Positions 12,026 to 40,580 of a stretch of 64,000 bases of DNA are shown here, one piece after another. The translations under genes were made by a program, and so were the position numbers. Each line of letters begins with the position of its first letter. Positions within the stretch are counted from its first letter, which is position 1. This DNA is from a virus (Duplodnaviria; Caudoviricetes), in IMG/VR virus record IMGVR_UViG_3300005841_000939; one strand, given 5' to 3'. The notes under the pieces are model-generated. The model had not been told where the DNA came from, did not search any database, and saw only the letters and a list, made by a program, of their open reading frames with translations.

Positions 12026-12092
12026 TAATCTCAACAAAGTTTGCTCAAGTTATATTTTTTAGCGATGTAAACTTGTGCTGCATTTGAGATTA
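12026..12092 (-). ncRNA. Y RNA-like family, short copy 1 (no tRNA module)
   Basis: TAATCTCAA/TTGAGATTA terminal stem, AAATGC and TACAT motifs, second stem CAAGTT/AACTTG. Confidence 0.6.
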
Positions 12093-12238: not shown

Positions 12239-12472
12239 TTATACCAGATTTACATCATATGTCAACTGGCTTTTATTCTCTAATCGTTCACCCAATAAAT
12301 GATGTAAGGTACCCATGTCCTCAACAGTAGCATCGCGCCATGTCTTATAAGGTCTTCCAGGTGAGCAATCATCGTAACAATCCAAAGTTGAGGTTTCATA
12401 TTCAACTTGAAGGATTAAAACCTTGCTGAAAGGCCAACGACTTTTTCTAAAACGAAGTTTTCCAGTCATCAT
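12239..12472 (-). CDS. small hypothetical protein, paralogue of 12708-13091
   Basis: TGKLRFR...LQVE...WRDATVEDM motif. Confidence 0.55.
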   Translation of the reverse strand: MMTGKLRFRKSRWPFSKVLILQVEYETSTLDCYDDCSPGRPYKTWRDATVEDMGTLHHLLGERLENKSQLTYDVNLV

Positions 12473-12768: not shown

Positions 12769-13091
12769 TAAACGTGTTCACTAACAAAACCACCATATTT
12801 AGTCAATTCATGTTGAACAACTAATTTACCAAAAGATTCCCTAACCCTAACATTACCAGTTATGCATGTCGCTATTCCAGAGCCATTTCCGAATTTATAT
12901 TTCGGAAGTCTTTTCATCACATCGTTTAAATGTTCAACTTTTGCATCTTCCCAACGAGTAGAATTAAGAATGTCATTATCAACAGGAATTGAGGTTTCAT
13001 ACTTTGTGCCAATTTCAATTTGCACAATCACTTTCTTAAAAAGACCTAGTCTTTTTACATTAAATCTAAAATTTCCTGTCAAATATTCCAT
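12708..13091 (-). CDS. hypothetical protein with an internal duplication
   Basis: two TG..R....Q.E....W.D units. Confidence 0.55.
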   Translation of the reverse strand: MEYLTGNFRFNVKRLGLFKKVIVQIEIGTKYETSIPVDNDILNSTRWEDAKVEHLNDVMKRLPKYKFGNGSGIATCITGNVRVRESFGKLVVQHELTKYGGFVSEHVYWWKDTTISTISQIFLGTTL

Positions 13092-14314
13092 CAGCGAATA
13101 TCAATCCTAAATAACGATTTTTTACCATGACGAATAACAATGCTATTTTTCACAATATCGTTATCAGTCACAATGTATGTCATATCATTGATTTTTACAT
13201 CGTTGACAGAAATTGAATTTTCCTTGATCATTCTCTGACCTTCTGAATTTGATTGGGCAATTCCAATCTCTCTCAGTAACATTTTTAATTGTATACCAGT
13301 TTTAATGTCTTCAATTGAAATTACCTTACTTGGAATATTTTCTCCAGTCACATCTCCTGATTTTTTAAATCCTGATTTAATATCATACATTGTCCGACGG
13401 GCAGTAGGTTCACTGCGAACCATTGAGGTTACATCATATGCCAAAATTTCTTTAGCATGATTGATGTCAGTAGAAACCATTTCACTAATTTCTTTCAAAG
13501 GACGCATCGTTAAAAAACGTAGAAGTTTTTCAACATCTTTATCTGGCACATTGCGCCAGAATTGGAAGAAATCAAAATTAGAAGTCAGTTTTTCATCCAA
13601 CCAAATGTTTCCAGTTTCACTTTTTCCAAACTTCTTTCCATTTGATTGAGTAAGCAATGGAAATGTCAATCCGTATGTACGTTGAGAAAACTTTTTACGA
13701 ATCAAATCAATTCCCATAATGATATTACCCCATTGATCTTGACCACCTATTTGAATCGTACAACCATGCATAAAATTCAAATAATAAAAATCATATGCTT
13801 GCATCAACATATAATTGAATTCAAGTGCAGTCAAACCTGTACTCAGACGACTTTTAACTGAATCCATACTAAGCATATGAGCAACACTGAAATGCGGCCC
13901 AATAATTCGTAACATATCAACCCATGGAACTTTATTAAGCCATCCACTATTATTTAAGAAAAAATGATAATATGGATTTTCAACATCATAACAATCGCGC
14001 AATTGTCTTTCAATGAGTTGCGCATTCGTATCAACCTCCTCAACAGTAAGCATCTTTCTAGATTCTGATTTTCCAGAAGGATCACCAATTAAGGCAGTTG
14101 CTCCACCAATAAGAGAAATAGTCCTATGATTGCATTTTTGTAACCATTTCATACACATGATAGGAACAAGACTACCAACATGCAAACTGGATGCAGTAGG
14201 ATCAAATCCACAATATGCAGTAATTTGTTTATTAACTTCAAAATATTCTCGTAAATTATCATCAGTGGTCTGAAAAATCAAACCACGTTCAGCCATAATA
14301 TCATAAAAATTCAT
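13091..14314 (-). CDS. tyrS: tyrosyl-tRNA synthetase
   Basis: YCGFDPTASSLHVGS (HIGH-like), EFNYMLMQAYDF, QIGGQDQWGNI, KFGKS (KMSKS-like), C-terminal S4 domain. Confidence 0.95.
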   Translation of the reverse strand: MNFYDIMAERGLIFQTTDDNLREYFEVNKQITAYCGFDPTASSLHVGSLVPIMCMKWLQKCNHRTISLIGGATALIGDPSGKSESRKMLTVEEVDTNAQLIERQLRDCYDVENPYYHFFLNNSGWLNKVPWVDMLRIIGPHFSVAHMLSMDSVKSRLSTGLTALEFNYMLMQAYDFYYLNFMHGCTIQIGGQDQWGNIIMGIDLIRKKFSQRTYGLTFPLLTQSNGKKFGKSETGNIWLDEKLTSNFDFFQFWRNVPDKDVEKLLRFLTMRPLKEISEMVSTDINHAKEILAYDVTSMVRSEPTARRTMYDIKSGFKKSGDVTGENIPSKVISIEDIKTGIQLKMLLREIGIAQSNSEGQRMIKENSISVNDVKINDMTYIVTDNDIVKNSIVIRHGKKSLFRIDIR

Positions 14315-19162: not shown

Positions 19163-19687
19163 TTATGCCTTTCGGCTAACAATCCAGACTCCACCCTTTT
19201 CTTCAACATTGGCAATGTCTTTGATAATTTCTGTAACTTTCTTGACAACTTCAACACAACGGTATTGATGTTTCATTTCTCTACCGCGCAATTTGAATGA
19301 AAGTGTAACTTTACTACCTTCTTCAATAAATTCTTGAATTTTCTTGACCTTTACTTCAAGATCAGCAATTTCAATATTTGGCGTTAGACGAATTTCTTTA
19401 TCATCCGGTGCTTTATGCGTATTATCTTTAACTTTTTTCTTTTGTTCAAAGACATACTTGCCATAATCCATGATTTTTGCAACTGGTGGGTTTGCCTCTG
19501 GAGCAATTTCCACCAAATCAAGACCTACTTCTCTTGATTTCTGCAACGCTTCTTTGTTTCCTATCACTCCAACATTTTCACCATTTTGATCAATCAGACG
19601 GACTTTCCAAGCCTTTATCTGATCATTAATTCGCAATCCATTTGCGGCTTGCTGTGGCTGTTCTCTGAAACTCTTTTTAGGAAACAA
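19163..19687 (-). CDS. infC: translation initiation factor IF-3
   Basis: RINDQI...VRLIDQNGENVGV...GLDLVEIAPEANPPVAKIMDYGKY...KEIRL...GRE; UUG start after GGAG. Confidence 0.92.
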   Translation of the reverse strand: MFPKKSFREQPQQAANGLRINDQIKAWKVRLIDQNGENVGVIGNKEALQKSREVGLDLVEIAPEANPPVAKIMDYGKYVFEQKKKVKDNTHKAPDDKEIRLTPNIEIADLEVKVKKIQEFIEEGSKVTLSFKLRGREMKHQYRCVEVVKKVTEIIKDIANVEEKGGVWIVSRKA

Positions 19688-20550: not shown

Positions 20551-21906
20551 TTATTTATACTTTTTTTCTTTAAAATGTTCTATCAGACGATCAGGCGTAA
20601 TTTCATACTTATAATCTTGTAAAAAACGACCATGTTGAATGTCATGAGCCAATGATGCAAAAATCTTTGAAAAATCTTTGTATGGAACTGGAACTTTCAT
20701 ATCCGTGAACGCTTTAATTAAGCTATCACCTGAAACTCTCAATATCCATGTATGAGCATAGGTGTCATTCAAATGAAATAATGGCTTATCGAAAATATCA
20801 ATTATTTCTTTATTTGCTTGATGCACATGCAAGCACAAATCAACATACTCTGAAATTGATTCTTGAACTTTTCTAGCGGAACTATGTACTCGCTCCATGT
20901 TCTCTTTTGATTTGTCGTAAAAATAAATGTGCAAGCATTGGTGGCAATGCATTAACGCCTTCCATTCATTCTTATCAGTTATTTTTGTAAAATCTCCACC
21001 ATTGAAGAATAATGCTGGCAACCATACTTTTTCCATTGAAGGAAATTCAGAATCGTCATCATCCTTATTGATGATGATCGGCTTGAAATCATCACCAAAC
21101 AATTCTTTGTCAATTCCATGATCCTTCATGCAATTGACGAATGTGTTATAGTCGCCAGACACACATCCTTTATAAAATTCGGCTTCAAATCTTTCTTTAC
21201 TAATGTTATGCAGTAAAGGAGCATTCCTCTTCATTGCTTGTGAAGTTTTAGGATCAATCTTCAACTTATACCGAGCAACAAATTGCAACGCCCTCAAAAT
21301 TCTTAGAGGATCTTCTGCAAAACGATCATCTGCATTACCAACAGCTTTTAAAATCTTTTTCTTGCCATCGTTCTCTGCTGTTTTATTTGGAGCAATGATA
21401 CGTTGAGGCTGTGCAATTTCAATTGCAAATGCATTGATGGTAAAATCTCTACGCTGCAAATCTTTTTCAATTGGAATTGAAGGATCTACTGACACGACAT
21501 TTCTATCAGTGTCAAAACGAGGAATACTAATCTGACATTCTTTTGTCAAGAAATTATTAATCATCAAAATACCAAACGATTTACCAACCTCATCAATCTT
21601 TAAATTAAAAGTTGCAATCTCTTTTATTATTTCTGTAATTTTTTCATATGCCAATCCAGCCACACAAAAATCATAATCAATTTTCTTCGTTGAATTATAA
21701 TAGTAATATGGTTGATTTTTTGATAATCCTAGGATATAATCCCGAACCATACCACCAACAAAATACAGAGTGCCACCAGCAGCCTGAACAGCAGCACCCA
21801 ACAACAAGATTCGTTCATAATCTCCGATATTAGGAACGAATGACAAGTGAGGATGTCTGTTTGATTTAAGGGCGTCAAAAATCTGGAGATATGGTTGCTG
21901 GGTCAT
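20551..21906 (-). CDS. cca: CCA-adding enzyme / poly(A) polymerase family nucleotidyltransferase
   Basis: FVGGMVRD, DYDF, DLQRRDFTINAFA, RFAEDPLRILRALQF. Confidence 0.88.
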   Translation of the reverse strand: MTQQPYLQIFDALKSNRHPHLSFVPNIGDYERILLLGAAVQAAGGTLYFVGGMVRDYILGLSKNQPYYYYNSTKKIDYDFCVAGLAYEKITEIIKEIATFNLKIDEVGKSFGILMINNFLTKECQISIPRFDTDRNVVSVDPSIPIEKDLQRRDFTINAFAIEIAQPQRIIAPNKTAENDGKKKILKAVGNADDRFAEDPLRILRALQFVARYKLKIDPKTSQAMKRNAPLLHNISKERFEAEFYKGCVSGDYNTFVNCMKDHGIDKELFGDDFKPIIINKDDDDSEFPSMEKVWLPALFFNGGDFTKITDKNEWKALMHCHQCLHIYFYDKSKENMERVHSSARKVQESISEYVDLCLHVHQANKEIIDIFDKPLFHLNDTYAHTWILRVSGDSLIKAFTDMKVPVPYKDFSKIFASLAHDIQHGRFLQDYKYEITPDRLIEHFKEKKYK

Positions 21907-21969: not shown

Positions 21970-23661
21970 TTAGGACTTCTTCTTGATGGCCTTCTTGACA
22001 CCAGCCTTCGCAGCATCAACCACTGGACTTGTTTCCAGGGTAATAGTGTCAATCAACTTCACGAAGTCACCACCATTGTATGTTCCATTGGCGAACAGGT
22101 CAATAACAGTGAAGCAATCATCCGAGAAACCACCGATGTACAATACATCAGTTCCAGTCTTCACTTGTTGTGAAGTGTTAGGAGTCACGTCAATTGAAAC
22201 GAAACGTGCCTTAGGATTGCGACTCTTGAACTTCAACCATTCCGCGTGAGCCGAAGTGCCGTAGTCATTTGACATGTCGCGCCATGATTCATTGTCAGAA
22301 ACCATGATGATCAAGTCACCCTTGGCATTATCACGGTTCAACTTGCGGATTGGCGCACTGCATGAGGTTCCACCTGATGGCAAATGGGCGATGACATTTG
22401 AATTTGATACAACTGAATCACGAGGATTCAAGCGGCATGGAACAACATCATCACTGAAACAGATTACCTCTGCATCTGGATTCTTGCGCAAAACAGCCGA
22501 AGCCACCAATGCAGCAACATCGCGACAAGACACCTTTGAAGAAGTATTGCCACGGTTTCCAGTCACAGGAGAACCCATTGAACCTGACACGTCAACGCAT
22601 ACATACACCTTACCTGCGAAGGTTGGAATATTCTCGGTTGAGATTTCCAATGCGTCTTGCAACGCATTAGTGATTTGCGAAGGAATTCCTTCCTCAACAT
22701 TCTTGTATGCTGCCAAGAGTTGGTAAGGGAATACCTTACTCTTCTCAATTGATGCGCGATCACGGAGCTTATCCGAAACAGTGCCAATCATCTTGGAATC
22801 GTTGAAAACTCCTTGACGCAAGAAAGTATTCAAGTTCATGCGAGTTGCATGCCAAGGAGCATTCTTCGCAATTGCAGTCCACTCGGGTGTTCCGAGATTC
22901 AATGCAGTCAGAAGACGGAATTCCACATCAGGAATTTCTGAAATGTTGGCCTTACCAGAAAGAACAGAAGTCTTGAACTTCTCGTACTTTTGCACAGTTT
23001 CAGGAAGTTCTGACAAAAGGACAGTGGTTGCACGCCCGTGCTTGTCATTAACCATATCACTCTTGCGAGTAACAACCTTCTTGCCGATGAGATATGCGAA
23101 CAATGCAGCTTGCACACTATCACGAGGAGCAGGGTGAGCCATCTTGATCACGTCAGCAATTGATGGATCATTACCAACTGAATCCTTGAAGAGGGAATCA
23201 TCACGACGGGTCTTGAACCATGCATTGATGAGCTTCTTCACACTGGTACCGAAAGACTTACGTCCAACCTTACCAGAACGGATGATTTGACAGAAGTTAC
23301 GCAACATCTTACCGTTGTCGATAACTTGAGGGAACACTACCTTCAAAACACTCACATCCTTAGATGCGAGAATTGCACATAGAAGTGCAGGAGTGTCCTT
23401 CATGAAAGAGTGCTTGCGTGCGTAGATTGCAGTACGACCGATGAAAGTCGCAGGAACCTTGTTGCAGAGCGAGATGATTTCTGCAAGTTGATCACCAGCA
23501 GAAGTATAGAAGGTATTTCCCAAAGTACCAACGATGGCCATTTGCGCCAGCTTTTCGCGGTCGCCGAGGTCATACGCAGCCCCGCCAGCGTGGTTTACCA
23601 CAGTGGCAACGGGAGACTTGGACTTAGGAGTTGAGGAACCGAAGAGATTCTTATTAGCCAT
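21970..23661 (-). CDS. rsr: Ro60/TROVE-domain RNA-binding protein (Rsr) with C-terminal vWA domain
   Basis: NHAGGAAY, GTLGNTFY, MKDTPALL, NGKMLRNF, RMNLNT, VFPYQLLAAY, VDVSGSM, SDNESW; start placed at the ATG at 23661 (563 aa). Confidence 0.92.
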   Translation of the reverse strand: MANKNLFGSSTPKSKSPVATVVNHAGGAAYDLGDREKLAQMAIVGTLGNTFYTSAGDQLAEIISLCNKVPATFIGRTAIYARKHSFMKDTPALLCAILASKDVSVLKVVFPQVIDNGKMLRNFCQIIRSGKVGRKSFGTSVKKLINAWFKTRRDDSLFKDSVGNDPSIADVIKMAHPAPRDSVQAALFAYLIGKKVVTRKSDMVNDKHGRATTVLLSELPETVQKYEKFKTSVLSGKANISEIPDVEFRLLTALNLGTPEWTAIAKNAPWHATRMNLNTFLRQGVFNDSKMIGTVSDKLRDRASIEKSKVFPYQLLAAYKNVEEGIPSQITNALQDALEISTENIPTFAGKVYVCVDVSGSMGSPVTGNRGNTSSKVSCRDVAALVASAVLRKNPDAEVICFSDDVVPCRLNPRDSVVSNSNVIAHLPSGGTSCSAPIRKLNRDNAKGDLIIMVSDNESWRDMSNDYGTSAHAEWLKFKSRNPKARFVSIDVTPNTSQQVKTGTDVLYIGGFSDDCFTVIDLFANGTYNGGDFVKLIDTITLETSPVVDAAKAGVKKAIKKKS

Positions 23662-23763
23662 GATGCATTTTCCTTTCAGGAAACAATTGGTTGGCGAGTT
23701 AGTATAGAGATAAATTTTAAAGTGACAAGTGTTAATTGTCACCAAAGAATATACCTATTATAC

Positions 23764-24411
23764 TTAAATAATTATTTTTTCAACTACGGTACTATCATCA
23801 ATGATGACTGCACCAAGTTGACCGTTACCATCCGATTTACCGCATTGTAAATCCACACAATATGCGTTTGGCTCAACGTCAATAACATGTGAATGAATGT
23901 GGCCGAAGATAACCGGTTTATCGCTGGTTTCACCAGGATATTTTTCTGATAATTTCATCCGAATTGGTTTACCCTCAGCATCAAAACCAGCAACCCATCC
24001 ATAGAAGAATCGGTCAAAAGGAACATTGTCCCAATCATGTTGAAATAGGGCAGCCGGGGCATGTGAAATTCCGACGTGTTCGGTTTTGAAATAATGGCGC
24101 TGCTTGTCTCGGGTATCACCAACACAGTTGAGAAGGGCAGTTTTAAATGCCTCAAAGTCACGATCAGTCAATTGTTCCGGAAAAACACGCTTCTCTTTGC
24201 GAATCTTTTTCAGATAAGCAAATTCGTGATTTCCAACTAGACGAATGCTGTTAGGAACTGATGCACAATAATTTAAAACATCAATTGGCTGAGGACCACG
24301 GTCAACGTAATCACCAACGAAAACGACCAGATCAACTTTTGAGAAATATGAATCAAGTTGACGAACCTTGTCGTAAACTCCGTGAATGTCACCAACAGCT
24401 AAGATACGCAT
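23764..24411 (-). CDS. calcineurin-like metallophosphoesterase
   Basis: GDIHG, GDYVDRG, GNHE, FGH motifs. Confidence 0.88.
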   Translation of the reverse strand: MRILAVGDIHGVYDKVRQLDSYFSKVDLVVFVGDYVDRGPQPIDVLNYCASVPNSIRLVGNHEFAYLKKIRKEKRVFPEQLTDRDFEAFKTALLNCVGDTRDKQRHYFKTEHVGISHAPAALFQHDWDNVPFDRFFYGWVAGFDAEGKPIRMKLSEKYPGETSDKPVIFGHIHSHVIDVEPNAYCVDLQCGKSDGNGQLGAVIIDDSTVVEKIII

Positions 24412-33599: not shown

Positions 33600-33945
33600 T
33601 TGTTTGAATGGTGTGTTATTACACCAAAGAACCGGTTTTCTTTACTCTTAATCAAACACGAATTATAAAAAGACACATTGAAAAAGTAATGTATTGTCTC
33701 TTTATAAAAGGAGAATAACTCCAAAGTTTCGTTCTTAAACATGTAGCTGACTCCGGTCAAAGAGTAGGATTATGAATCCTTGCGCGGTTTGTTCAGAAGA
33801 GGTTGCTAGCTAATCCCTTCGTCGTCATACTTTATTTACCTTTTTTATCAGGACCATATGACAATCATCGGGCAAGCACCTTGCTATTCAGCGAATTCAC
33901 TCTTTAAAAGATGGCTACTTCTAAGCCGACTTCCCATTCAAACAA
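33600..33945 (-). ncRNA. 23S rRNA GTPase-associated-centre (H42-H44) mimic RNA with a large insert
   Basis: 12-bp terminal inverted repeat; GGAAGTCGGCTTAGAAGTAGCCATCTTTTAAAGAG at the 5' end and TTCTTTGGTGTAATAACACAC at the 3' end. Confidence 0.72.
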
Positions 33946-33951
33946 AAAGAA

Positions 33952-34108
33952 TTTCACGACAAAAGTGCCAAAGTAGACTCCTTGCGGATTAGCTGTGTCT
34001 ATCATTTCCACCATACTCCCAATTGGTGGGAGCACCGGGATTTAAACCACGGATGTACCTAAGTACGGCTACGGTTATATAATGTAAACTTTAACTGCAT
34101 TCGTGAAA
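33952..34108 (-). ncRNA. Y RNA-like (YrlA-type) with permuted class II tRNA module
   Basis: TTTCACGA/TCGTGAAA stem, GAATGC, TACAT; variable arm, T arm, closed acceptor TGCTCCC-ACCAATT-GGGAGTA, D arm. Confidence 0.75.
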
Positions 34109-34110
34109 AG

Positions 34111-34185
34111 TGGTGCGTCGTCTTGGAATCGAACCAAGTCCCGAGGATTAAAAGTCCCCTGCTCCACCATTTGAGCTTACAACGC
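34111..34185 (-). tRNA. tRNA-Lys(TTT)
   Basis: GGGGA-CTTTTAA-TCCTC arm, encoded CCA. Confidence 0.9.
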
Positions 34186-34189
34186 GTGT

Positions 34190-34501
34190 TTATTTCTTTG
34201 GTAAATTGCCAGTTATGAAAAATTTAAGACGTTGAAAAAAGCCCATATGAACTATTTCTTCATATGACATCAACATACTTTCCATACATGAATCTTTTAA
34301 CTTATTACTTTCTTCAATCTTTTTATTTTCTTCAATCAGTCTTTTATTTTCGGATTGAAGTGAAACATAATGCTTTTGTTGATATTCGATCAAACCAGCA
34401 TGAAATGCAGTTCCGCCAACCAAAATAAATTCACGAAGTGGAATTGATTGAGGCATTGAGTCTTGCATCTGTTGCGCAGCTTTTTCTAAATCTTTAGTCA
34501 T
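34190..34501 (-). CDS. hypothetical protein
   Basis: 103-aa ORF inside the array. Confidence 0.5.
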   Translation of the reverse strand: MTKDLEKAAQQMQDSMPQSIPLREFILVGGTAFHAGLIEYQQKHYVSLQSENKRLIEENKKIEESNKLKDSCMESMLMSYEEIVHMGFFQRLKFFITGNLPKK

Positions 34502-34669
34502 TTTATTTCTTTGTGATTGGTTTTAACGGACTTTGATCCATACCCTGGACCAAACTTTTCTATCTGCTTCTTATACCACAATGCATGTGATCTAAGCCTT
34601 AAGAAATCGCCAGGTCCACTTCCTTTTGGTATCGGAATTTTTCTGAACATGGCATCTCCTTTCTTAATT

Positions 34670-34744
34670 TGGTGGGTCGTCACGGAATCGAACCGTGTTC
34701 TCAGGATTAAGAGTCCTATGCATCGCCATTTATGCTTACAACCC
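34670..34744 (-). tRNA. tRNA-Lys(CTT)
   Basis: TAGGA-CTCTTAA-TCCTG arm, encoded CCA. Confidence 0.9.
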
Positions 34745-34748
34745 AAAT

Positions 34749-35036
34749 TTATATTAAAGATAGTGTTGATTCATCAAATAGGAATTCTTTTTTGACTTGT
34801 TCAATTGGAACTTTTATGACTTGTTCGTGAAATTGCCTAGTTTCTTTATAAGACGATTTTGAATGCTTATATACATGACGAATTAGCACCGTCTTTTCAG
34901 TGACCTTCGCAATTTTACCAAACATGAATGATCTATATTCCAATTCTACAAATAAAACCCAATCACCTGCAGCTAATTCATTGCCAAGAAAATCTTTGTT
35001 CATGGCGAAAGTATATGCAACCAATTTCGTTGTCAA
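34749..35036 (-). CDS. hypothetical protein
   Basis: 95-aa ORF; start uncertain. Confidence 0.5.
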   Translation of the reverse strand: MTTKLVAYTFAMNKDFLGNELAAGDWVLFVELEYRSFMFGKIAKVTEKTVLIRHVYKHSKSSYKETRQFHEQVIKVPIEQVKKEFLFDESTLSLI

Positions 35037-35420
35037 TTCTAAAAGGATACCTGGTTAAGCAGCAGGGTGAGGTTACGATTCTGTCGTCACAGACCGATTA
35101 AATATTCTTCACTCATCACAAACGCCAAACAGTCATCATCCATTCCATTATCAATTATGACTGGACCTGTTGCTTCTGCACCATACATTTTGATGGCATT
35201 TTCCATGGAATCTTCACACAGTTTTTTGAATTCTGGATATTCCATGATGATCACTTTATAATTCTAAGAGGATAAAATTTTGTTTCATCCTTCTTTTTAT
35301 TCTTTGGATTCTTACTACGTTTTTGTTCAGATTCATGCAAAAGTTTTGCATAAATTTTCTGAAACTCTTCTAACGTGATTCCTATATCGTCATCTTCTTT
35401 CATGATGAGTCTTTCTAAAA

Positions 35421-35496
35421 TGGTGGAGACGGCAGGACTCGAACCTGTAACCCTCTACGTGCAAGGCAGATGCTCTACCAATTGAGCTACGTCCCC
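35421..35496 (-). tRNA. tRNA-Ala(TGC)
   Basis: GGGGACG acceptor with G3-U70, CTTGCAC loop, encoded CCA. Confidence 0.92.
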
Positions 35497-35595
35497 ATTT
35501 TGTTTATTGATATTTAGCTTTCGCTATTTTCTTCTTCCATGATGGCCAGGAATTAAACTTTTTCTTAGCCTCTTTTAAAATTTGTGCAGATGATT

Positions 35596-36039
35596 TCATA
35601 TTTTATTGGCGAATGTATAAAACATTCCAGTCTTTGTGTCAATGAATTTATATTCCTCAACTTTATATTCAAAAACTAATGAAAATATTCCGTCTGTATC
35701 ATTTAAATCATGATCTAACTTAGTTCCATGATAGAGACCTGCCAGATAAATTTTAGTAAATTCAAGTTTCAATATTACATCACCATTTTTTGCTATTTGT
35801 GATGTAACAATTTTTTCTGGTTGTTTAAACATCAATTCAAGTGTTTTTGGATTTTTATCATCAACTAACATTTTTATTTTTAATGTATCTTTATTAGTGA
35901 AGTCAACCGTTCTCACAAGTGTTGTTAGTTCGTTCTTTGGAACTAGTTCTACGCCATTAGCATCAAAGGCTTCTACTAAAAATAGATATGATCTTAATGG
36001 ATCATTAAAAAGAAATTCTGGTTTTGGAATATTATTCAT
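35596..36039 (-). CDS. hypothetical protein
   Basis: start placed at MNNIPKPEF (36039); the longer ORF-track version runs through tRNA genes. Confidence 0.55.
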   Translation of the reverse strand: MNNIPKPEFLFNDPLRSYLFLVEAFDANGVELVPKNELTTLVRTVDFTNKDTLKIKMLVDDKNPKTLELMFKQPEKIVTSQIAKNGDVILKLEFTKIYLAGLYHGTKLDHDLNDTDGIFSLVFEYKVEEYKFIDTKTGMFYTFANKI

Positions 36040-36080
36040 ACAAGTAATTATACAAAATATATTACAATATGCGAGAAAAA

Positions 36081-36156
36081 TGGTTGGGGAGGAAGGATTC
36101 GAACCTTCAACTTCTGGATTCAAAGTCCAGCGTTCTACCGATTGAACTACTCCCCA
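36081..36156 (-). tRNA. tRNA-Gln(TTG)
   Basis: CTGGA-CTTTGAA-TCCAG arm, U1-A72, encoded CCA. Confidence 0.92.
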
Positions 36157-36165
36157 ATGAAAATT

Positions 36166-36247
36166 TGGTGTGCCTGAGAGGACTTGAACCTCCACCCTTT
36201 CGGACTAGTTTCTAAAACTAGCGCGGCTGCCATTACGCCACAAGCAC
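36166..36247 (-). tRNA. tRNA-Leu(TAG)
   Basis: CTAGT-TTTAGAA-ACTAG arm, long variable arm, encoded CCA. Confidence 0.92.
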
Positions 36248-36262
36248 ATGATGAAATTGAAA

Positions 36263-36349
36263 TGGTGTGTCCAAAAGGAGTCGAACCTTCACCCCTGTTA
36301 CGGGATTAGCACCTCAAGCTAACGCGGCTGCCAATTACGCCATAGACAC
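36263..36349 (-). tRNA. tRNA-Leu(GAG)
   Basis: TTAGC-TTGAGGT-GCTAA arm, long variable arm, encoded CCA. Confidence 0.92.
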
Positions 36350-36356
36350 ATAAAAA

Positions 36357-36417
36357 TCAAGACTAATATTTGAGAAGTTTTGTTGTTTCATAATGTAAAC
36401 TTCTGCGGCATTCTTGA
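36357..36417 (-). ncRNA. Y RNA-like family, short copy
   Basis: TCAAGA/TCTTGA stem, GAATGC, GAAGTTT/AAACTTC stem, TACAT. Confidence 0.6.
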
Positions 36418-36427
36418 AAAAATAAAA

Positions 36428-36522
36428 TGGCGCCCCAGGATGGATTTGAACCACCAACCTCTTCTTGATCCCCCAAGGGATGGCCTTGATCAAGAATCAC
36501 TCTACATTTGAGCTACCGGGGC
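36428..36522 (-). ncRNA. tRNA-like RNA with an extended, non-canonical anticodon arm
   Basis: normal acceptor, D and T arms and CCA; 9-bp TTCTTGATC/GATCAAGAA stem enclosing 17 nt. Confidence 0.65.
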
Positions 36523-36532
36523 ATATAAAAAA

Positions 36533-36607
36533 TGGCACCCAAGATAGGACTCGAACCTATAACATCCTGATTAACAGTCAGGCTCTCTACCATTGAGATA
36601 CTCGGGT
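36533..36607 (-). tRNA. tRNA-Asn(GTT)
   Basis: CCTGA-CTGTTAA-TCAGG arm, G73, encoded CCA. Confidence 0.9.
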
Positions 36608-36617
36608 ACAAAAAAAA

Positions 36618-36708
36618 TGGCTGGTAGTGAGGGACTCGAACCCCCATGATGTTTTTCACATCGGCTCGTTAACAGCGGGCTGCCTTACCAAATTCGGCAC
36701 AACTACCA
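36618..36708 (-). tRNA. tRNA with Asn anticodon (GTT) and a class II long variable arm
   Basis: loop CTGTTAA; variable hairpin GATGT-GAAAA-ACATC; G73; encoded CCA. Confidence 0.75.
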
Positions 36709-36720
36709 ATGAAAATAAAA

Positions 36721-36806
36721 TGGAGTCTGTAGCAGGATTTGAACCTGCGTGTGGTTTCCCAAACGGTTTTGCAAACCGTCGCTTTCAGCCGCTCAGCCAT
36801 ACAGAC
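36721..36806 (-). tRNA. tRNA-Cys(GCA) with a long variable arm
   Basis: ACGGT-TTGCAAA-ACCGT arm, U73, variable hairpin TGG-GAAA-CCA. Confidence 0.85.
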
Positions 36807-36812
36807 ATATAA

Positions 36813-36891
36813 TCGCAACAAAATTTAAAAAGTTTTGGTTTTTCCAGAGCAAGCTCGGGTATATTAGATGTAAACTTTTCAGCATTTGCGA
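36813..36891 (-). ncRNA. Y RNA-like family, short copy
   Basis: TCGCAA/TTGCGA stem, AAATGC, AAAAGTTT/AAACTTTT stem, TACAT, one internal hairpin. Confidence 0.6.
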
Positions 36892-36902
36892 AATAAAAAG
36901 AA

Positions 36903-37037
36903 TAAAGCGACAAAAAGTATGAAGTGGTTTTTCGTGTGTTAGCCGTTACACCACCACCCGTTATGGTCGGGCAGCCAGGAATCGAACCTAGATCACGTTC
37001 TCCGAATGAATGTACACCTCAAAAGGCATTCGCTTTA
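36903..37037 (-). ncRNA. Y RNA-like (YrlA-type) with permuted tRNA module
   Basis: TAAAGCGA/TCGCTTTA stem, GAATGC, TACAT; T arm CTAGGTTCGATTCCTGG, closed acceptor CTGCCCG-ACCATAA-CGGGTGG, D arm. Confidence 0.8.
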
Positions 37038-37039
37038 AA

Positions 37040-37116
37040 TGGTGGTCCCTCAGGGAATCGAACCCTAACCTCAGGTTTTTCAAACCTACGTGCATACCTA
37101 ATTACACCAAAGGACC
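37040..37116 (-). tRNA. tRNA-Phe(GAA)
   Basis: TAGGT-TTGAAAA-ACCTG arm, encoded CCA. Confidence 0.9.
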
Positions 37117-37133
37117 ATAATATCTTAAAAAAT

Positions 37134-37223
37134 TGGCGGATAGAGAGGGATTTGAACCCCCGGAACGTTTTCACGCTCATCGGTTTAGTAAACCGGCGCA
37201 TTCGGCCACTCTGCCATCTATCC
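37134..37223 (-). tRNA. tRNA-Ser(ACT), rare A34 anticodon
   Basis: Ser-type body nearly identical to 40811-40900; loop TTACTAA. Confidence 0.8.
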
Positions 37224-37232
37224 GTATGAAAC

Positions 37233-37306
37233 TGGTCGGTAATGATGGAGTCGAACCATCGCATTGGCCTTATGAGAGCCACGTTCTGCCGTTAAACTAA
37301 ATACCG
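37233..37306 (-). tRNA. tRNA-Met or Ile2 (CAT)
   Basis: TGGCT-CTCATAA-GGCCA arm, encoded CCA. Confidence 0.8.
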
Positions 37307-37310
37307 ATAC

Positions 37311-37386
37311 TGGCACGCTGGGCAGGACTTGAACCTGCAACACCTGGTTTTGGAAACCAGTGCTCTGCCGATTGAGCTACCAGCGT
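37311..37386 (-). tRNA. tRNA-Trp(CCA)
   Basis: CTGGT-TTCCAAA-ACCAG arm, G73, encoded CCA. Confidence 0.92.
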
Positions 37387-37393
37387 ATGAAAC

Positions 37394-37603
37394 TTAAAAA
37401 TCTTTCTCTTCAAGCAAATTTGTGCAACGACCTTCTGCAACTGCTCTATTTATGTCATCAAATTCTTTTTTGATTTCATCAAGCAATGCTTTCTTTTCTT
37501 CTTCTGATATATCAGAAGAATTTAACCTTTCTTCGGTTTTCTCATCCAAATGAATGCAACTTGAAATCATTCCTTCTGATAACCATTCCTGTGGAACTAT
37601 CAT
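37394..37603 (-). CDS. small hypothetical protein
   Basis: 69-aa ORF, ATGA coupling. Confidence 0.5.
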   Translation of the reverse strand: MIVPQEWLSEGMISSCIHLDEKTEERLNSSDISEEEKKALLDEIKKEFDDINRAVAEGRCTNLLEEKDF

Positions 37604-38205
37604 TTGTCTTCTTTCTCTAAAAGGTTGTTAAAAATGATTTTGCAAATGGCCTTGCCACGACGGTCAATATGCTTCCACTTGATCTTAAAAGAATCCGAAT
37701 CAATACCACCAAACATATTGGCATTTGAATGGATTTCAGCAAGACCTGCAATTAGAAGTGTTATTGCTTCTTTGCGTTTGCAAAATTCTTCAATTTGTTC
37801 TGCTTTGAGACGATGAATATCCATATCCAACCTAATGAGATTGGCAATTTGTTCATCACCTCCATGATCTAACCAAATTTGTGCAGAAATTTCCGCATGA
37901 TTTGGAAAATGAATGCGACCTTCGCTATCAGTTTCCTGACAGAATGGTTTGCCGCAATCATGAAAAAGGGCATACTCAAGAATTGTTTCGGTGTCTAACA
38001 GATTCCCTAAAATCTGTGACTTGTATAATTGAAACCATTCAGGGAGTCGCCAATTTGGCAACACCTATGTTTCACCTTTTATAAACTGAATCAACTCTTG
38101 AAGATGATTCTTGACTGATTCTCCGTGTTGGAGAATCGTTTGATGTTGATTTTGATTACAACCCTTCATCTTTTCGATGAGGATCTACTGAAAGTCCTGC
38201 TTCAT
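37600..38205 (-). CDS. HD-like phosphohydrolase interrupted by two in-frame TAG codons (readthrough gene or pseudogene)
   Basis: AAGGA RBS + ATG at 38205; TAG at 38185-38187 and 38065-38067; TILQHG...FHDCGKP...HFPNHA; ends at TGA. Confidence 0.6.
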
Positions 38206-38380
38206 GATGTTCCTTAAATGGTTGATGCGAGAGCGAGCGATGTTGCTATGCGTGAAAGTTCGTCATTTCTTTTACTATCAATTTGACCATTGTTCCATCC
38301 AATTTCTCGAATGTGAAATGCCAACGCCAAAGAATTTTCAAATTCTTCAACTTCAATTAATTTTTCTCCAACTCTAATCA

Positions 38381-38689
38381 TCATTTCAATCTTTCTGATT
38401 TTTGAATTGCGAGTTGTTTTGACGATTTAATTTTATTATACAAGTCATCAGGATGGAAATTTGGTTCCCATTCTTTCCCTTGTGTAATATGAAATTTTTC
38501 TGCCATCATGTGATGGGTTGGGCAAAGAGAAATACCATTCTCTTTGACATAGCCACCGTTTGGCATTTCATTTCGATCAGTTATGTGATGCGCATCAAGA
38601 TTTTCTTTAATGTCACAAAACAAACATTTGCCACCGTCTCGCTTGAAGACTGCGTTGCGAAATGCTGAACGAATTTCCTTCTTGTTCAT
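38381..38689 (-). CDS. HNH endonuclease
   Basis: VFKRDGGKCLFC...LDAHHI...NGISLCPTHH. Confidence 0.82.
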   Translation of the reverse strand: MNKKEIRSAFRNAVFKRDGGKCLFCDIKENLDAHHITDRNEMPNGGYVKENGISLCPTHHMMAEKFHITQGKEWEPNFHPDDLYNKIKSSKQLAIQKSERLK

Positions 38690-38738
38690 GGCTTACGACA
38701 TAAGTTTAAGCCTTGTTTTTATATGTCAACTGAAAAAA

Positions 38739-38890
38739 CACCTGGGTATTCGCTGTCTTTCAAACTCTGGTTAGTTGATGCATTCAACATCACCAATGCG
38801 CCAAGTGTGTATTGAAAATGCCGCAGTCAGGATATGCGCCAGCTTTGAACTTCTAGTTAGTTGATGCATCAACATCACTAATGCGCCTGA
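38739..38890 (-). ncRNA. tandem pair of ~65-nt structured motifs of unknown function
   Basis: two copies of GGCGCATTRGTGATGTTGA(A)TGCATCAACTAACYAG, each in its own closing helix, with a compensatory A-U/G-C change. Confidence 0.55.
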
Positions 38891-38901
38891 GATTGGCTTT
38901 T

Positions 38902-38977
38902 TGGTGGACAATGAGGGATTTGAACCCCCGACCTCTTGAATGTAAATCAAGCACTCTAGCCGCTGAGTTAATCGTCC
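38902..38977 (-). tRNA. tRNA-Val(TAC)
   Basis: CTTGA-TTTACAT-TCAAG arm, encoded CCA. Confidence 0.92.
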
Positions 38978-38994
38978 AAAAATTGAAATTATAA

Positions 38995-39137
38995 AGGCAG
39001 CTTTCAATCGCGACCATATCGTATAATTTCTTCCTGTTTTTTATCCATGATGGATCATCATGCTATGCTTTTGACTTGTTGCAAACAAGCAATGTTATGC
39101 ATTAACATTGTTAGCATCTAACCGTCGCTAGATGCCC
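38995..39137 (-). ncRNA. candidate multi-hairpin ncRNA
   Basis: four consecutive hairpins inside GGGCA/TGCCT ends. Confidence 0.4.
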
Positions 39138-39145
39138 AAAAAAGA

Positions 39146-39212
39146 AATACGACTAAAAGCGAATAAGAGGGGTTATCTTAAATGGATGTACTCCTATTCT
39201 AGCATTCGTATT
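39146..39212 (-). ncRNA. Y RNA-like family, short copy
   Basis: AATACGA/TCGTATT stem, GAATGC, GAATAGGAG/CTCTTATTC stem, TACAT. Confidence 0.62.
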
Positions 39213-39214
39213 AT

Positions 39215-39300
39215 TGGTGCCCATAGCCGGACTTGAACCAGCACCCCTGTTACGGGAGAGGATTTTGAATCCACCGCGGCTGCCATTACGCCATACGGGC
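39215..39300 (-). tRNA. tRNA-Leu(CAA)
   Basis: loop TTCAAAA, long variable arm, encoded CCA. Confidence 0.9.
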
Positions 39301-39342
39301 AAAAATTGATTGTCTAAAATGGTTGTGAATACTTTCGTTTAT

Positions 39343-39446
39343 AGAAATGGTCTGCCGTAGCACGTTGGCCATTTCTTTGACGGGAGCATTCATATCTAAA
39401 AGGTGCCAATAATATCCCCAAAGCTGCCGTAGCACGTTCTATGAGG
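39343..39446 (-). repeat. two hairpins sharing the 15-mer AACGTGCTACGGCAG
   Basis: identical 15-mer at 39352-39366 and 39424-39438, each capping a different basal stem. Confidence 0.6.
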
Positions 39447-39458
39447 AAGATGGCGAAA

Positions 39459-39532
39459 TTGCTGCGACACTTGGATTTAAACCAAGACTTTCCGATTTCC
39501 CCTCGGTGCTCTAATTATTAAGCTATATCACA
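39459..39532 (-). pseudogene. degenerate tRNA-like gene
   Basis: acceptor, D and T arms pair; anticodon loop GGGGAAA lacks U33; ends GCAA instead of NCCA. Confidence 0.55.
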
Positions 39533-39538
39533 ATAAGA

Positions 39539-39615
39539 TGGTCAGTATGAGAGGATTTGAACCTCTGACTTCTGGCTTCCAAAACCAGCACTCTTCCAGG
39601 CTGAGCTACACACTG
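39539..39615 (-). tRNA. tRNA-Pro(TGG)
   Basis: CTGGT-TTTGGAA-GCCAG arm, C1-G72, encoded CCA. Confidence 0.88.
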
Positions 39616-39623
39616 ATAAAAAG

Positions 39624-39725
39624 TTTCACAACAAAATAAAAAAGAAGTGCTCCCCAATAGAGCATCTGAGGTTTCCCTAAGATTGGAATCGAACCAATAA
39701 TGTATTCTTTTTAGCATTTGTGAAA
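39624..39725 (-). ncRNA. Y RNA-like with reduced tRNA module
   Basis: TTTCACAA/TTGTGAAA stem, AAATGC, TACAT; T arm ATTGGTTCGATTCCAAT, GAAA-capped stem, TGCTC/GAGCA hairpin. Confidence 0.68.
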
Positions 39726-39731
39726 ATGAAA

Positions 39732-39818
39732 TGGTGGGTGAAATAGGACTCGAACCTATGAAGTCATTAAAGACGGGACGTTTACAGCGTCCAGCAATTG
39801 CCGCTATGCGATTCACCC
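39732..39818 (-). tRNA. tRNA-Tyr(GTA)
   Basis: GGACG-CTGTAAA-CGTCC arm, long variable arm, encoded CCA. Confidence 0.92.
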
Positions 39819-39823
39819 AAAAA

Positions 39824-39964
39824 TATCACGACTAAATTGCGAAAGAAAATGGCTTGCGCCGAATCGGCTGTTCTACCGCTGAACTACATCACACCGAAAT
39901 GTGATGGTGGGATTTGAACCCACGACAGGCTGATGGAATGTAATCCTTCATTGCATTCGTGATA
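39824..39964 (-). ncRNA. Y RNA-like (YrlA-type) with permuted tRNA module
   Basis: TATCACGA/TCGTGATA stem, GAATGC, TACAT; T arm GTGGGTTCAAATCCCAC, closed acceptor CATCACA-TTTCGG-TGTGATG, D arm TAGTTCAGCGGTAGAAC. Confidence 0.82.
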
Positions 39965-39975
39965 AAAACTGAAAA

Positions 39976-40052
39976 TGGTCGGACATGCTGGATTTGAACC
40001 AGCGGTCTCTTGCTCCCAAAGCAAGCGCGATACCAGGCTACGCTAATGTCCG
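39976..40052 (-). tRNA. tRNA-Pro(TGG) second copy
   Basis: CTTGC-TTTGGGA-GCAAG arm, encoded CCA. Confidence 0.92.
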
Positions 40053-40056
40053 AAAA

Positions 40057-40131
40057 GCCGATCCGTCAAGATTTTAACTTGAATCTCCCAGCGTATAGTG
40101 CCAGGCATTCTTTACGTTGAACTACGAATCG
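40057..40131 (-). ncRNA. tRNA-like RNA with a 9-nt anticodon loop (CACTATACG)
   Basis: 7-bp acceptor, D and T arms; no GG in the D loop; no encoded CCA. Confidence 0.55.
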
Positions 40132-40146
40132 AAAAGTAAACTAAAA

Positions 40147-40223
40147 AGGCCCGACTGTCAAGATTTGAACTTGAATTTTCCAGCCATGACGGCCGGACGT
40201 TCTTTGCATTGAACTACAATCAG
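40147..40223 (-). ncRNA. tRNA-like RNA with a 9-nt anticodon loop (CCGTCATGG), paralogue of 40057-40131
   Basis: same D and T arm sequences, covarying acceptor stem; ends GCCT. Confidence 0.55.
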
Positions 40224-40228
40224 AAAAA

Positions 40229-40361
40229 GAAACGACTAAAAGCGAAAAGATGTATTACGCGCTCTACCGGTGAGCTAAACGAGCAAATTGGCGCCCGCTC
40301 CAGGAATCGAACCTGGTCCTCGTCCTTAACATGGATGTAATCCTTTCAAAGCATTCGTTTC
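40229..40361 (-). ncRNA. Y RNA-like (YrlA-type) with permuted tRNA module
   Basis: GAAACGA/TCGTTTC stem, GAATGC, GAAAGGAT/ATCTTTTC, TACAT; T arm CCAGGTTCGATTCCTGG, closed acceptor AGCGGGC-GCCAATTT-GCTCGTT, D arm. Confidence 0.82.
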
Positions 40362-40370
40362 AAAGAAAAG

Positions 40371-40501
40371 GTCTGACAAATATTAGAGAAATTGTTTTTT
40401 AATGCTACCGTTACACCATACACACCTTTCGATGTGCAATAGGATTCGAACCTATACCCTTTGATTATCGGTCAATGTAAATCTCTCAAAGGCATTCAGA
40501 C
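40371..40501 (-). ncRNA. Y RNA-like (YrlA-type) with permuted tRNA module
   Basis: GTCTGA/TCAGAC stem, GAATGC, GAGAGAT/ATTTCTC, TACAT; T arm ATAGGTTCGAATCCTAT, closed acceptor TGCACAT-CGAAAG-GTGTGTA, D arm. Confidence 0.8.
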
Positions 40502-40504
40502 TTG

Positions 40505-40580
40505 TGGTTGGCATACCAGGAATCGAACCTGGATCTTAACTTTATCAGAGTTATGTGATGAACCATTCTACTATACGCCA
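40505..40580 (-). tRNA. tRNA-Ile(GAT)
   Basis: TAACT-CTGATAA-AGTTA arm, encoded CCA. Confidence 0.88.

Follow-up and report, generated by a model that had tools for sequence, protein, structure and literature searches.

YrlA RNAs such as those of Salmonella Typhimurium and Mycobacterium smegmatis have a Ro60/Rsr partner, a terminal stem with CGAA on the 5' strand and a permuted tRNA-like domain. The order of this domain, with a T arm, a closed acceptor stem and a D arm, has already been defined, and it has been reported that the YrlA RNA of M. smegmatis possesses a 7-bp acceptor, is an RNase P substrate and acquires CCA (Chen et al. 2014, PMC4201824). Moreover, the variable loop of many YrlA RNAs is long, as in class II tRNAs (Wang et al. 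2018, 10.1101/312249), and it has been suggested that the RNAs arose, possibly several times, from transcripts of dimeric tRNAs (10.1101/312249, citing Sim and Wolin 2018). An RNA of Bxz1-type phages has also been counted as YrlA (Chen et al. 2014, PMC4201824). Both the permuted-tRNA design and the idea of dimeric-tRNA capture are therefore published and not new here. In the present study, we describe a set of Y RNAs in a stretch of 64,000 nucleotides (nt), hereafter the window, of the tailed-phage record IMGVR_UViG_3300005841_000939 from the IMG/VR database. One new point is that RNAs combining the same frame with a permuted tRNA-like module occur in at least 100 IMG/VR phage loci. Further new points are the enrichment of tRNA-like CCA ends in the closing loops, the frequent resemblance of the loop ends to real tRNA leaders and the retention of ACCAUAA in the Y2 ortholog of a distant phage. 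As the best explanation, to which we assign as a whole a probability of about 0.6, the RNAs would be YrlA-class Y RNAs of a large phage-specific subfamily residing inside phage tRNA arrays, and the five modules of the window (Y1 to Y5) would be old paralog lineages that have been kept together in many phages rather than recent captures of tRNA genes.

Two other systems have a comparable arrangement. Two-piece tmRNA is encoded by permuted ssrA genes in alphaproteobacteria and some cyanobacteria, in which the T arm, the acceptor 3' strand and CCA lie upstream of the acceptor 5' strand. The intervening segment is processed, leaving two base-paired pieces with a CCA end. Unlike the phage RNAs, two-piece tmRNA is alanylated and contains a tag reading frame and a reduced D arm, and it has no Ro-binding frame. 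In the permuted tRNA genes of Cyanidioschyzon merolae, the 3' half precedes the 5' half and a short intervening sequence is located at the acceptor end. These genes keep a complete anticodon arm and mature to decoding tRNAs, whereas in the phage RNAs the Y frame replaces the anticodon arm. With YrlA, the phage RNAs share the presumed Ro60/Rsr partner, the CGAA-containing terminal stem, the permuted domain and the conserved tRNA tertiary nucleotides, and some members have class II-like variable loops. In contrast to YrlA, there are ten copies per genome here, which are scattered in tRNA arrays, the long ones being 10-17 kb away from the Ro60 gene. Furthermore, the acceptor has exactly 7 bp in all five long copies, three closing loops encode NCCA, that is, a discriminator base followed by CCA, together with a leader-like spacer, a UACAU junction motif is universal, and the Rfam YrlA scores reach only 22-42 bits. 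The YrlA RNA of mycobacteriophage Cali (Bxz1-type) also has a phage-encoded Ro60 partner and the order of T arm, closed acceptor and D arm. It reaches a sub-threshold 36.1 bits with the Rfam YrlA model and 45.6 bits with the module model described below. However, it is a single copy just upstream of the Ro gene, and its acceptor hairpin is long and extended and has no NCCA.

The minus strand of the window contains ten copies of the frame motif, which consists of CGAAUGC, a short variable stretch and UACAU; five of the copies are long, one is reduced and four are short (Table 1). A first-pass annotation made from the DNA letters had placed five long copies and a reduced sixth here and had read each long copy as a T arm, an acceptor stem closed by a loop and a D arm. 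Motif, coordinates and folding bear out these placements, all of them on the minus strand, folding revealed the proposed order in all five long copies, and the five closing loops quoted in the annotation match exactly. The frame is composed of a terminal stem with CGAAUGC on its 5' strand, a second stem, the UACAU junction and UUUUGUCG on the 3' strand. Y1 to Y4 contain CGAAUG and Y5 contains UGAAUG, while the upstream G of GNCGAA is not conserved. The terminal stem covaries among the copies (CGA/UCG, CAA/UUG and UGA/UCA). In the common fold of the long copies, both ends form the terminal stem, which is followed by an internal loop, the second stem and a multiloop holding the variable region, the T arm, the acceptor hairpin and the D arm. 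All five have a T stem of 5 bp, with one bulged U in Y1, and a 7-nt T loop. The T stem abuts an acceptor hairpin with 7/7 pairs, and U8-N9 and the D arm follow (5/5). The anticodon loop is replaced by the Y frame in each long copy, and only an anticodon-stem remnant of 0-5 bp is left. Thus, the shared frame and the folding of the five copies support the earlier description of a constant Ro-type frame bearing tRNA-like elbows without an anticodon arm. The conserved frame presumably binds the phage Ro60 protein.

U8 is present in all five long copies, and Y2 to Y5 have GG in the D loop and the T loop UUCRAWU. In Y1, the D loop contains GA and the T loop UUU, where other Leu-type modules have GG and UUC. 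This suggests that the pair G19:C56 has been replaced by A19:U56 in Y1, which would support a real elbow fold. The reduced copy Y6 combines the common frame with the T arm UUGG-UUCGAUU-CCAA and two subsequent hairpins, and it has no acceptor-plus-D-arm pair. Look-alikes of Y6 are present in other phages, namely the Y RNAs starting at L012:17989 and L011:15965. A U-rich tract of the UUCUUUUU type is located directly 3' of every long Y RNA (for instance, at 33945-33953, 36895-36904 and 40225-40228). The tract could serve as a terminator or as a binding site for a protein.

As regards membership in known families, the Rfam YrlA model (RF02553) matches four of the six long and reduced copies with 41.7, 37.9, 32.6 and 22.5 bits, the gathering cut-off being 69 bits. 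The genome contains a Ro60/Rsr gene, and the RNAs have an end-pairing stem with CGAA(N)G, a permuted tRNA-like domain and tRNA tertiary nucleotides. No tRNA gene called by ARAGORN or Rfam overlaps any module, and the cloverleaf of the tRNA family (RF00005) was not recovered; the sole Rfam tRNA match on the modules lies over Y5 (19 bits, E = 4.6). Likewise, a complete anticodon stem-loop, as in permuted tRNA genes, was found in none of the five long copies.

The frame is not restricted to this phage. It is also present in four phages that were found via their Ro60 proteins (43-49% identical; one phage is represented by two contigs of the same sequence) and in Myxococcus phage Mx1. Moreover, a pattern of frame plus T arm matches 105 IMG/VR stretches, and parsing of these stretches yielded about 100 modules that contain an acceptor hairpin; in 87 of these, the D arm is clear. 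The alignments of the 3' frame from other phages are incomplete in that the automatic 3'-end finder ended some sequences early. Three module cores of the window and 19 of other phages, 22 in total, were used to build a covariance model. The five modules of the window score between 27.3 and 60.5 bits with this model (Table 1), and real tandem tRNA junctions score at most 37.7 bits. In the 22-core alignment, none of the 15 pairs is lost and both partners have changed in 13 of them, while control structures slid by 1-3 columns are paired in only about 43% of the cells. The cores were chosen for pairing, so it is the double changes and not the complete pairing that are informative. No YrlA was present among the 150 matches listed at the Rfam gathering cut-off for 11 related loci. 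The phages mostly hold one module per kind, as exemplified by L086 and L127.

The frame can also be combined with other tRNA-like bodies. At L012:12251-12384 (IMGVR_UViG_3300010430_000022), the Y frame surrounds a tRNA that is in normal order and whose anticodon arm is intact. This tRNA is recognised by Rfam with 56.1 bits at 12289-12361, and a hairpin located upstream closes the distal part of the acceptor, which represents a different way to mount a tRNA body on the same frame. Furthermore, in three loci of related phages, the tRNA array also includes a full tmRNA gene (126-130 bits), which is at most 1 kb away from the Y RNAs (L012:12647-13062, L044:8943-9300 and L046:6180-6529).

The loops closing the acceptor hairpins were compared in 70 modules in which the acceptor is paired at 7/7 positions and the loop does not exceed 20 nt; 68 of the loops are 4 nt or longer. 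Fifteen of these 68 loops have NCCA directly after the acceptor 3' strand, where 1.3 are expected (P = 2.6e-12), and CCA is nearly absent at other offsets in these loops. Among the 15 NCCA loops, ten have A as the discriminator, four have G and one has U. Twelve of them end in U, and a final UAU occurs in 18 of the 70 loops. Real tRNA leaders of the same loci have U at position -1 in 57% of the cases with UAU as the commonest final triplet, and in this genome 9 of 33 tRNA leaders end with UAU. The spacer between adjacent real tRNAs has a median length of 5 nt, and the NCCA loops of the window leave 3-4 nt. Thus, about one fifth of the loops correspond to the 3' end of a tRNA fused to the 5' leader of a tRNA, in line with the earlier reading of the loops in the window. 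Another 12 of the 70 loops are tetraloops of the GNRA or YNCG (CUCG) type. In the window, Y1, Y2 and Y4 have NCCA loops and Y3 and Y5 have tetraloops. Based on the loop base frequencies, the chance of finding NCCA at the exact post-discriminator position in three of five loops is about 7e-5. NCCA loops were not significantly associated with phages that have CCA-encoding tRNA genes (6/14 versus 4/24; Fisher P = 0.13).

The ortholog of Y2 in the phage G003 (approximately L011:16158-16295) is informative as to whether the loop is a relic. Its loop also begins with ACCAUAA, yet its acceptor strands match those of Y2 at only 2 of 14 positions and all seven acceptor pairs differ. The variable-region motif, the D arm and the junction following the D arm are retained, and the second frame stem, the T stem and the acceptor stem have all changed with compensation. 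The acceptor of the ortholog matches none of the eight tRNAs that were parsed from part of G003. If the loop bases were unconstrained, they should drift at least as far as the adjoining stems. The retention of ACCAUAA therefore suggests that NCCA is under selection, and the loop is probably conserved and functional rather than leftover. This divides the earlier idea of a CCA relic: the resemblance to a tRNA end holds, and relic status is doubtful next to an acceptor saturated with changes.

The relationships among the modules and with tRNAs were studied by re-permuting the modules and comparing both halves with the 33 standard tRNAs of the phage. The best identities range from 0.68 to 0.73 and none exceeds the background, so the alignment proposed as a check gave no match above background. 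The mean identity between modules is 0.60, as compared with 0.59 for unrelated tRNA pairs. Against 457 phage tRNAs from all loci, the modules of the window reach 0.74-0.81, the 95th percentile of the different-isotype background being 0.83. Thus, there is no sign of recent capture, although low similarity is no proof of separate origins because the helices are saturated with changes. By contrast, Y1, Y2, Y4 and Y5 can be aligned with orthologs in phages whose Ro60 proteins are less than 50% identical where measured, which together with the missing match to the phage's own tRNAs argues against the earlier view that such RNAs arise repeatedly as a recent process. For Y3, the module table contains look-alikes. 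Y5 aligns with five other modules whose D and T arms are nearly invariant and whose acceptor stems are entirely different.

The first-pass annotation had also regarded the modules as unrelated to each other. This does not apply to Y2 and Y4, which align with two sister groups of modules in other phages that share a variable-region motif and an RCG(A/U)AAA junction. The identity of Y2 and Y4 amounts to 71% over the frame, the variable region and the T arm but to only 15% in the acceptor region, and the homology runs through the variable region and the anticodon-stem remnant. The identity between Y2 and its ortholog in another phage is 73%. Y2 and Y4 are thus as close to each other as Y2 is to its ortholog, which indicates that they were derived from one Y RNA by duplication. 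The elbows are nevertheless of different kinds, as had been claimed. There are at least two kinds of modules, the class II Leu-like Y1 and the class I-like Y2 to Y5.

The assignment of Y1 to class II with a Leu-type D loop stands. A hairpin GUAC-UUAG-GUAC lies 5' of its T arm, and in its D region Y1 is most closely related to tRNA-Leu. The L-type modules, including Y1, have a Leu-type D stem of 3 bp with its loop, a variable arm of 15-16 nt with a 4-bp stem and UG at positions 8-9; A73 is present in Y1 itself. Y1 aligns with other Leu-type modules that share the covarying variable-arm hairpin, and one of them also shares the CCGCAAGG hairpin. For 12 of the 15 L-type modules, only tRNA-Leu is found among the five nearest D-region relatives, and one L-type module from another phage matches a real tRNA-Leu with an identity of 0.89 across both halves and at 17/17 positions of the T arm. 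For at least the class II lineage, the best explanation is a separate derivation from tRNA-Leu or a conversion. Isotypes were assigned by the nearest neighbour over positions 8-26, a method that is 38% accurate on real tRNAs and separates the Leu type well (recall 0.79), and the assignment was limited to the Leu type, leaving Y2 to Y5 unlabelled.

Three other comparisons were set aside. A semi-global clustering of frame and junction segments was dropped because it was dominated by short-sequence artefacts. The acceptor of Y5 resembles that of tRNA-Leu(gag) at 6 of 7 positions, and this was not counted since about 0.2 such chance matches are estimated over all comparisons. Finally, the T arm of Y4 (40300-40316) is identical to that of tRNA-Ile (40516-40532) at 17/17 positions. 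This is not taken as a capture because orthologs of the Y4/Y2 type have the same T arm plus or minus one base.

Taken together, the favoured explanation is that the frame would bind the phage Ro60 protein and present an anticodon-less body consisting of the variable region, the T arm, the 7-bp acceptor hairpin and the D arm. The helices would have been turned over by compensatory change, and the acceptor stems would no longer carry a signal of their origin. An ancient origin from tandem tRNA genes of the same isotype is plausible. The closing loops would fall into two functional classes, NCCA followed by a short spacer ending in U (Y1, Y2 and Y4) and stable tetraloops (Y3 and Y5). By analogy with the YrlA RNA of M. 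smegmatis, RNase P may cut the Y RNAs with NCCA loops 5' of the acceptor 5' strand. The 3' side could then be trimmed, or repaired to CCA by the CCA-adding enzyme that the phage encodes next to Ro60. The product would be a Y RNA in two pieces that has the genuine acceptor end of a tRNA, and the tetraloops of Y3 and Y5 would keep the RNA in one piece. Several observations weigh against this explanation. The Rfam scores stay far below the gathering cut-off, and the distance to Ro60 exceeds the rule of 4 kb that defines YrlA. This distance of about 4 kb served as a confidence filter and is not a functional requirement (Chen et al. 2014, PMC4201824). In addition, the Y2 loop ends in A and not in U, and cleavage by RNase P would have to occur within a closed loop of 7-8 nt. 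NCCA loops and tetraloops also alternate inside single lineages, and repeated refreshment from tRNA genes could give the same pattern. Finally, the 89% match to tRNA-Leu implies that at least this lineage may be a separate tRNA derivative and not a diverged paralog.

Alternatively, each module might have been captured separately from a different tandem tRNA pair into a constant frame, NCCA being the decaying relic of recent captures. We regard this as unlikely, although it is the strongest competitor. It would account for the enrichment of NCCA and leader-like loops, for the agreement between loop spacers and real inter-tRNA spacers, for the occurrence of both class II and class I kinds, for the L-type module resembling tRNA-Leu and for the normal-order tRNA in the frame of L012. 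Moreover, tandem tRNA genes as source material do exist, as had been proposed. Among 116 adjacent tRNA pairs, the junction strands are complementary at 7/7 positions in one and at 6/7 in 13 pairs. For instance, the Leu(gag)-Leu(tag) junction at 36222-36290 on the minus strand is 6/7 complementary, has a 15-nt spacer and reaches 32.3 bits with the module model. Neighbours of the same isotype make up 11 of these 14 pairs, which suggests that tandem duplicates could seed a permuted module and that unrelated neighbours could do so only rarely. However, the perfect junction is confined to a single pair and different isotypes contribute just three of the 14. The modules of the window also match none of the genome's tRNAs above background, the acceptor of the Y2 ortholog is unlike all eight tRNAs parsed from part of G003, and four of the five modules have aligned orthologs in distant phages. 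The homology of Y2 and Y4 through the variable region and the anticodon-stem remnant and the conservation of ACCAUAA beside a stem saturated with changes likewise speak against captures from different tandem pairs.

Somewhat less probable still is that all modules descend from a single ancestral YrlA RNA and that the NCCA loops and Leu-like features were gained later under selection for recognition by tRNA enzymes. The homology between Y2 and Y4 and the saturation of the stems fit this idea, and the D-arm types G, E and A have the AAYGGUA loop in common, most of their differences being compensated pairs in the stem. The D-arm sequence alone, moreover, predicts the isotype with an accuracy of only 38%. 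The L-type modules are difficult to reconcile with it, since Y1 and others combine several Leu features, 12 of 15 have exclusively tRNA-Leu as nearest D-region relatives and one closely resembles a tRNA-Leu in both halves. That the RNAs are functionless degenerate junctions or pseudogenes of tandem tRNA genes, an artefact of which Chen et al. (2014, PMC4201824) have warned and which the scores of up to 37.7 bits for real junctions might suggest, is effectively refuted by conservation and covariation: the frame has covarying terminal stems in ten copies here and occurs in more than 100 phage loci, the acceptor strands are perfectly complementary with compensatory changes throughout, the anticodon arm is cleanly missing and the genome contains a Ro60 gene.

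So far, the published dimeric-tRNA origin of YrlA has rested on gene order and nearby tRNA genes. The phage family supplies what the model predicts, namely an acceptor of exactly 7 bp and a loop containing a discriminator, CCA and a spacer that resembles a leader, and the signal is strong over about 70 modules. The conservation of the junction turns the question of history into a functional one, that is, whether many phage Y RNAs are processed to two-piece RNAs with CCA ends. A Ro60-like phage protein has been reported to counter bacterial defence (preprint, PMC11482910). Since several kinds of modules are kept together as well, the tRNA-like end may matter in the conflict between phage and host. 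As a speculation to which we give little weight, the Y RNAs might form a panel with distinct tRNA identities (Leu-like class II, Glu/Gln-like and generic). RNase P would then cut the members with NCCA loops into two pieces, the phage enzyme would maintain their CCA, and on the Ro60 particle they might act as decoys or adaptors for proteins that read the tRNA body and the acceptor end. Candidate targets could be anticodon-independent synthetases such as LeuRS or host defence enzymes targeting tRNAs. The family lies below the Rfam YrlA cut-off and is thus probably unannotated in many large phage genomes.

Table 1 Y RNAs of the window and genes near Ro60. Positions refer to the window; core model, covariance model of 22 module cores; YrlA, Rfam YrlA model
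Feature	Coordinates	Strand	T arm	Acceptor 3' strand	Closing loop	Acceptor 5' strand	D arm	Remarks
Y1, long, class II Leu-like module	33954-34106	-	34035-34052	34028-34034	ACCAAUU, 34021-34027	34014-34020	33995-34011	Core model 27.3 bits; T loop UUUAAAU, T stem with one bulged U
Y2, long	36905-37035	-	36975-36991	36968-36974	ACCAUAA, 36961-36967	36954-36960	36936-36951	Core model 56.9 bits; ortholog at about L011:16158-16295
Y3, long	39825-39963	-	39907-39923	39900-39906	UUUCGG, 39894-39899	39887-39893	39870-39884	YrlA 37.9 bits; core model 60.5 bits; UUCG tetraloop on an eighth U-G pair
Y4, long	40229-40361	-	40300-40316	40293-40299	GCCAAUUU, 40285-40292	40278-40284	40261-40275	YrlA 32.6 bits; core model 43.7 bits
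Y5, long	40371-40501	-	40439-40455	40432-40438	CGAAAG, 40426-40431	40419-40425	40402-40416	Core model 53.7 bits; GAAA tetraloop with C-G closing pair
Y6, reduced	39626-39723	-						YrlA 41.7 bits; core model 18.7 bits
Short Y RNA, frame only	39147-39211	-						Frame motif; no tRNA-like module
Short Y RNA, frame only	36813-36891	-						Frame motif
Short Y RNA, frame only	36357-36417	-						Frame motif
Short Y RNA, frame only	12029-12089	-						Frame motif; second, smaller tRNA cluster
Ro60/Rsr ortholog	21970-23745	-						Ro60 vWA domain (6.6e-19) and TROVE (7.4e-07); presumed protein partner of the Y RNAs
CCA-adding enzyme/poly(A) polymerase family nucleotidyltransferase	20551-21906	-						Directly downstream of Ro60
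Calcineurin-like phosphoesterase	23764-24411	-						Upstream of Ro60; weak similarity to the phosphatase part of Pnkp
TyrRS and IF3	13091-14314, 19163-19687	-						Also near Ro60

The source record is a soil phage of 262.5 kb with an estimated completeness of 97%, and the window corresponds to the minus strand of record positions 70471-134470. DNA of the phage was found in three DNA runs from rhizosphere metagenomes, with no RNA run among those listed. A megablast search of the Y RNA region against 50,697 phage records gave 0 matches. The Ro60 gene product receives the name Rsr from NCBIfam with a score under the cut-off of that model, and its closest named relative is the Ro60 protein of Myxococcus phage Mx1 (44.7% identity). 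The adjacent nucleotidyltransferase is a candidate for repairing the CCA ends of cleaved Y RNAs. TyrRS, IF3, the nucleotidyltransferase of the CCA-adding type and the phosphoesterase give the surroundings of Ro60 the appearance of a translation and RNA-repair neighbourhood.

The window contains 30 tRNA genes, every one on the minus strand, and of the 34 tRNA genes predicted in the whole genome, 33 encode the CCA end. Between tRNA-Asn and a short Y RNA, Rfam detects a tRNA of 92 nt that is absent from the ARAGORN calls (36431-36522, minus strand; 42.5 bits). Two paralogous tRNA-like genes are located between Y4 and tRNA-Pro at 40058-40131 and 40148-40223 on the minus strand (Rfam tRNA 41.6 and 36.7 bits), and both have neither an encoded CCA nor the D-loop GG. 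One of them is designated 'SeC' with the anticodon UCA by ARAGORN and could be an opal-reading or non-canonical tRNA.

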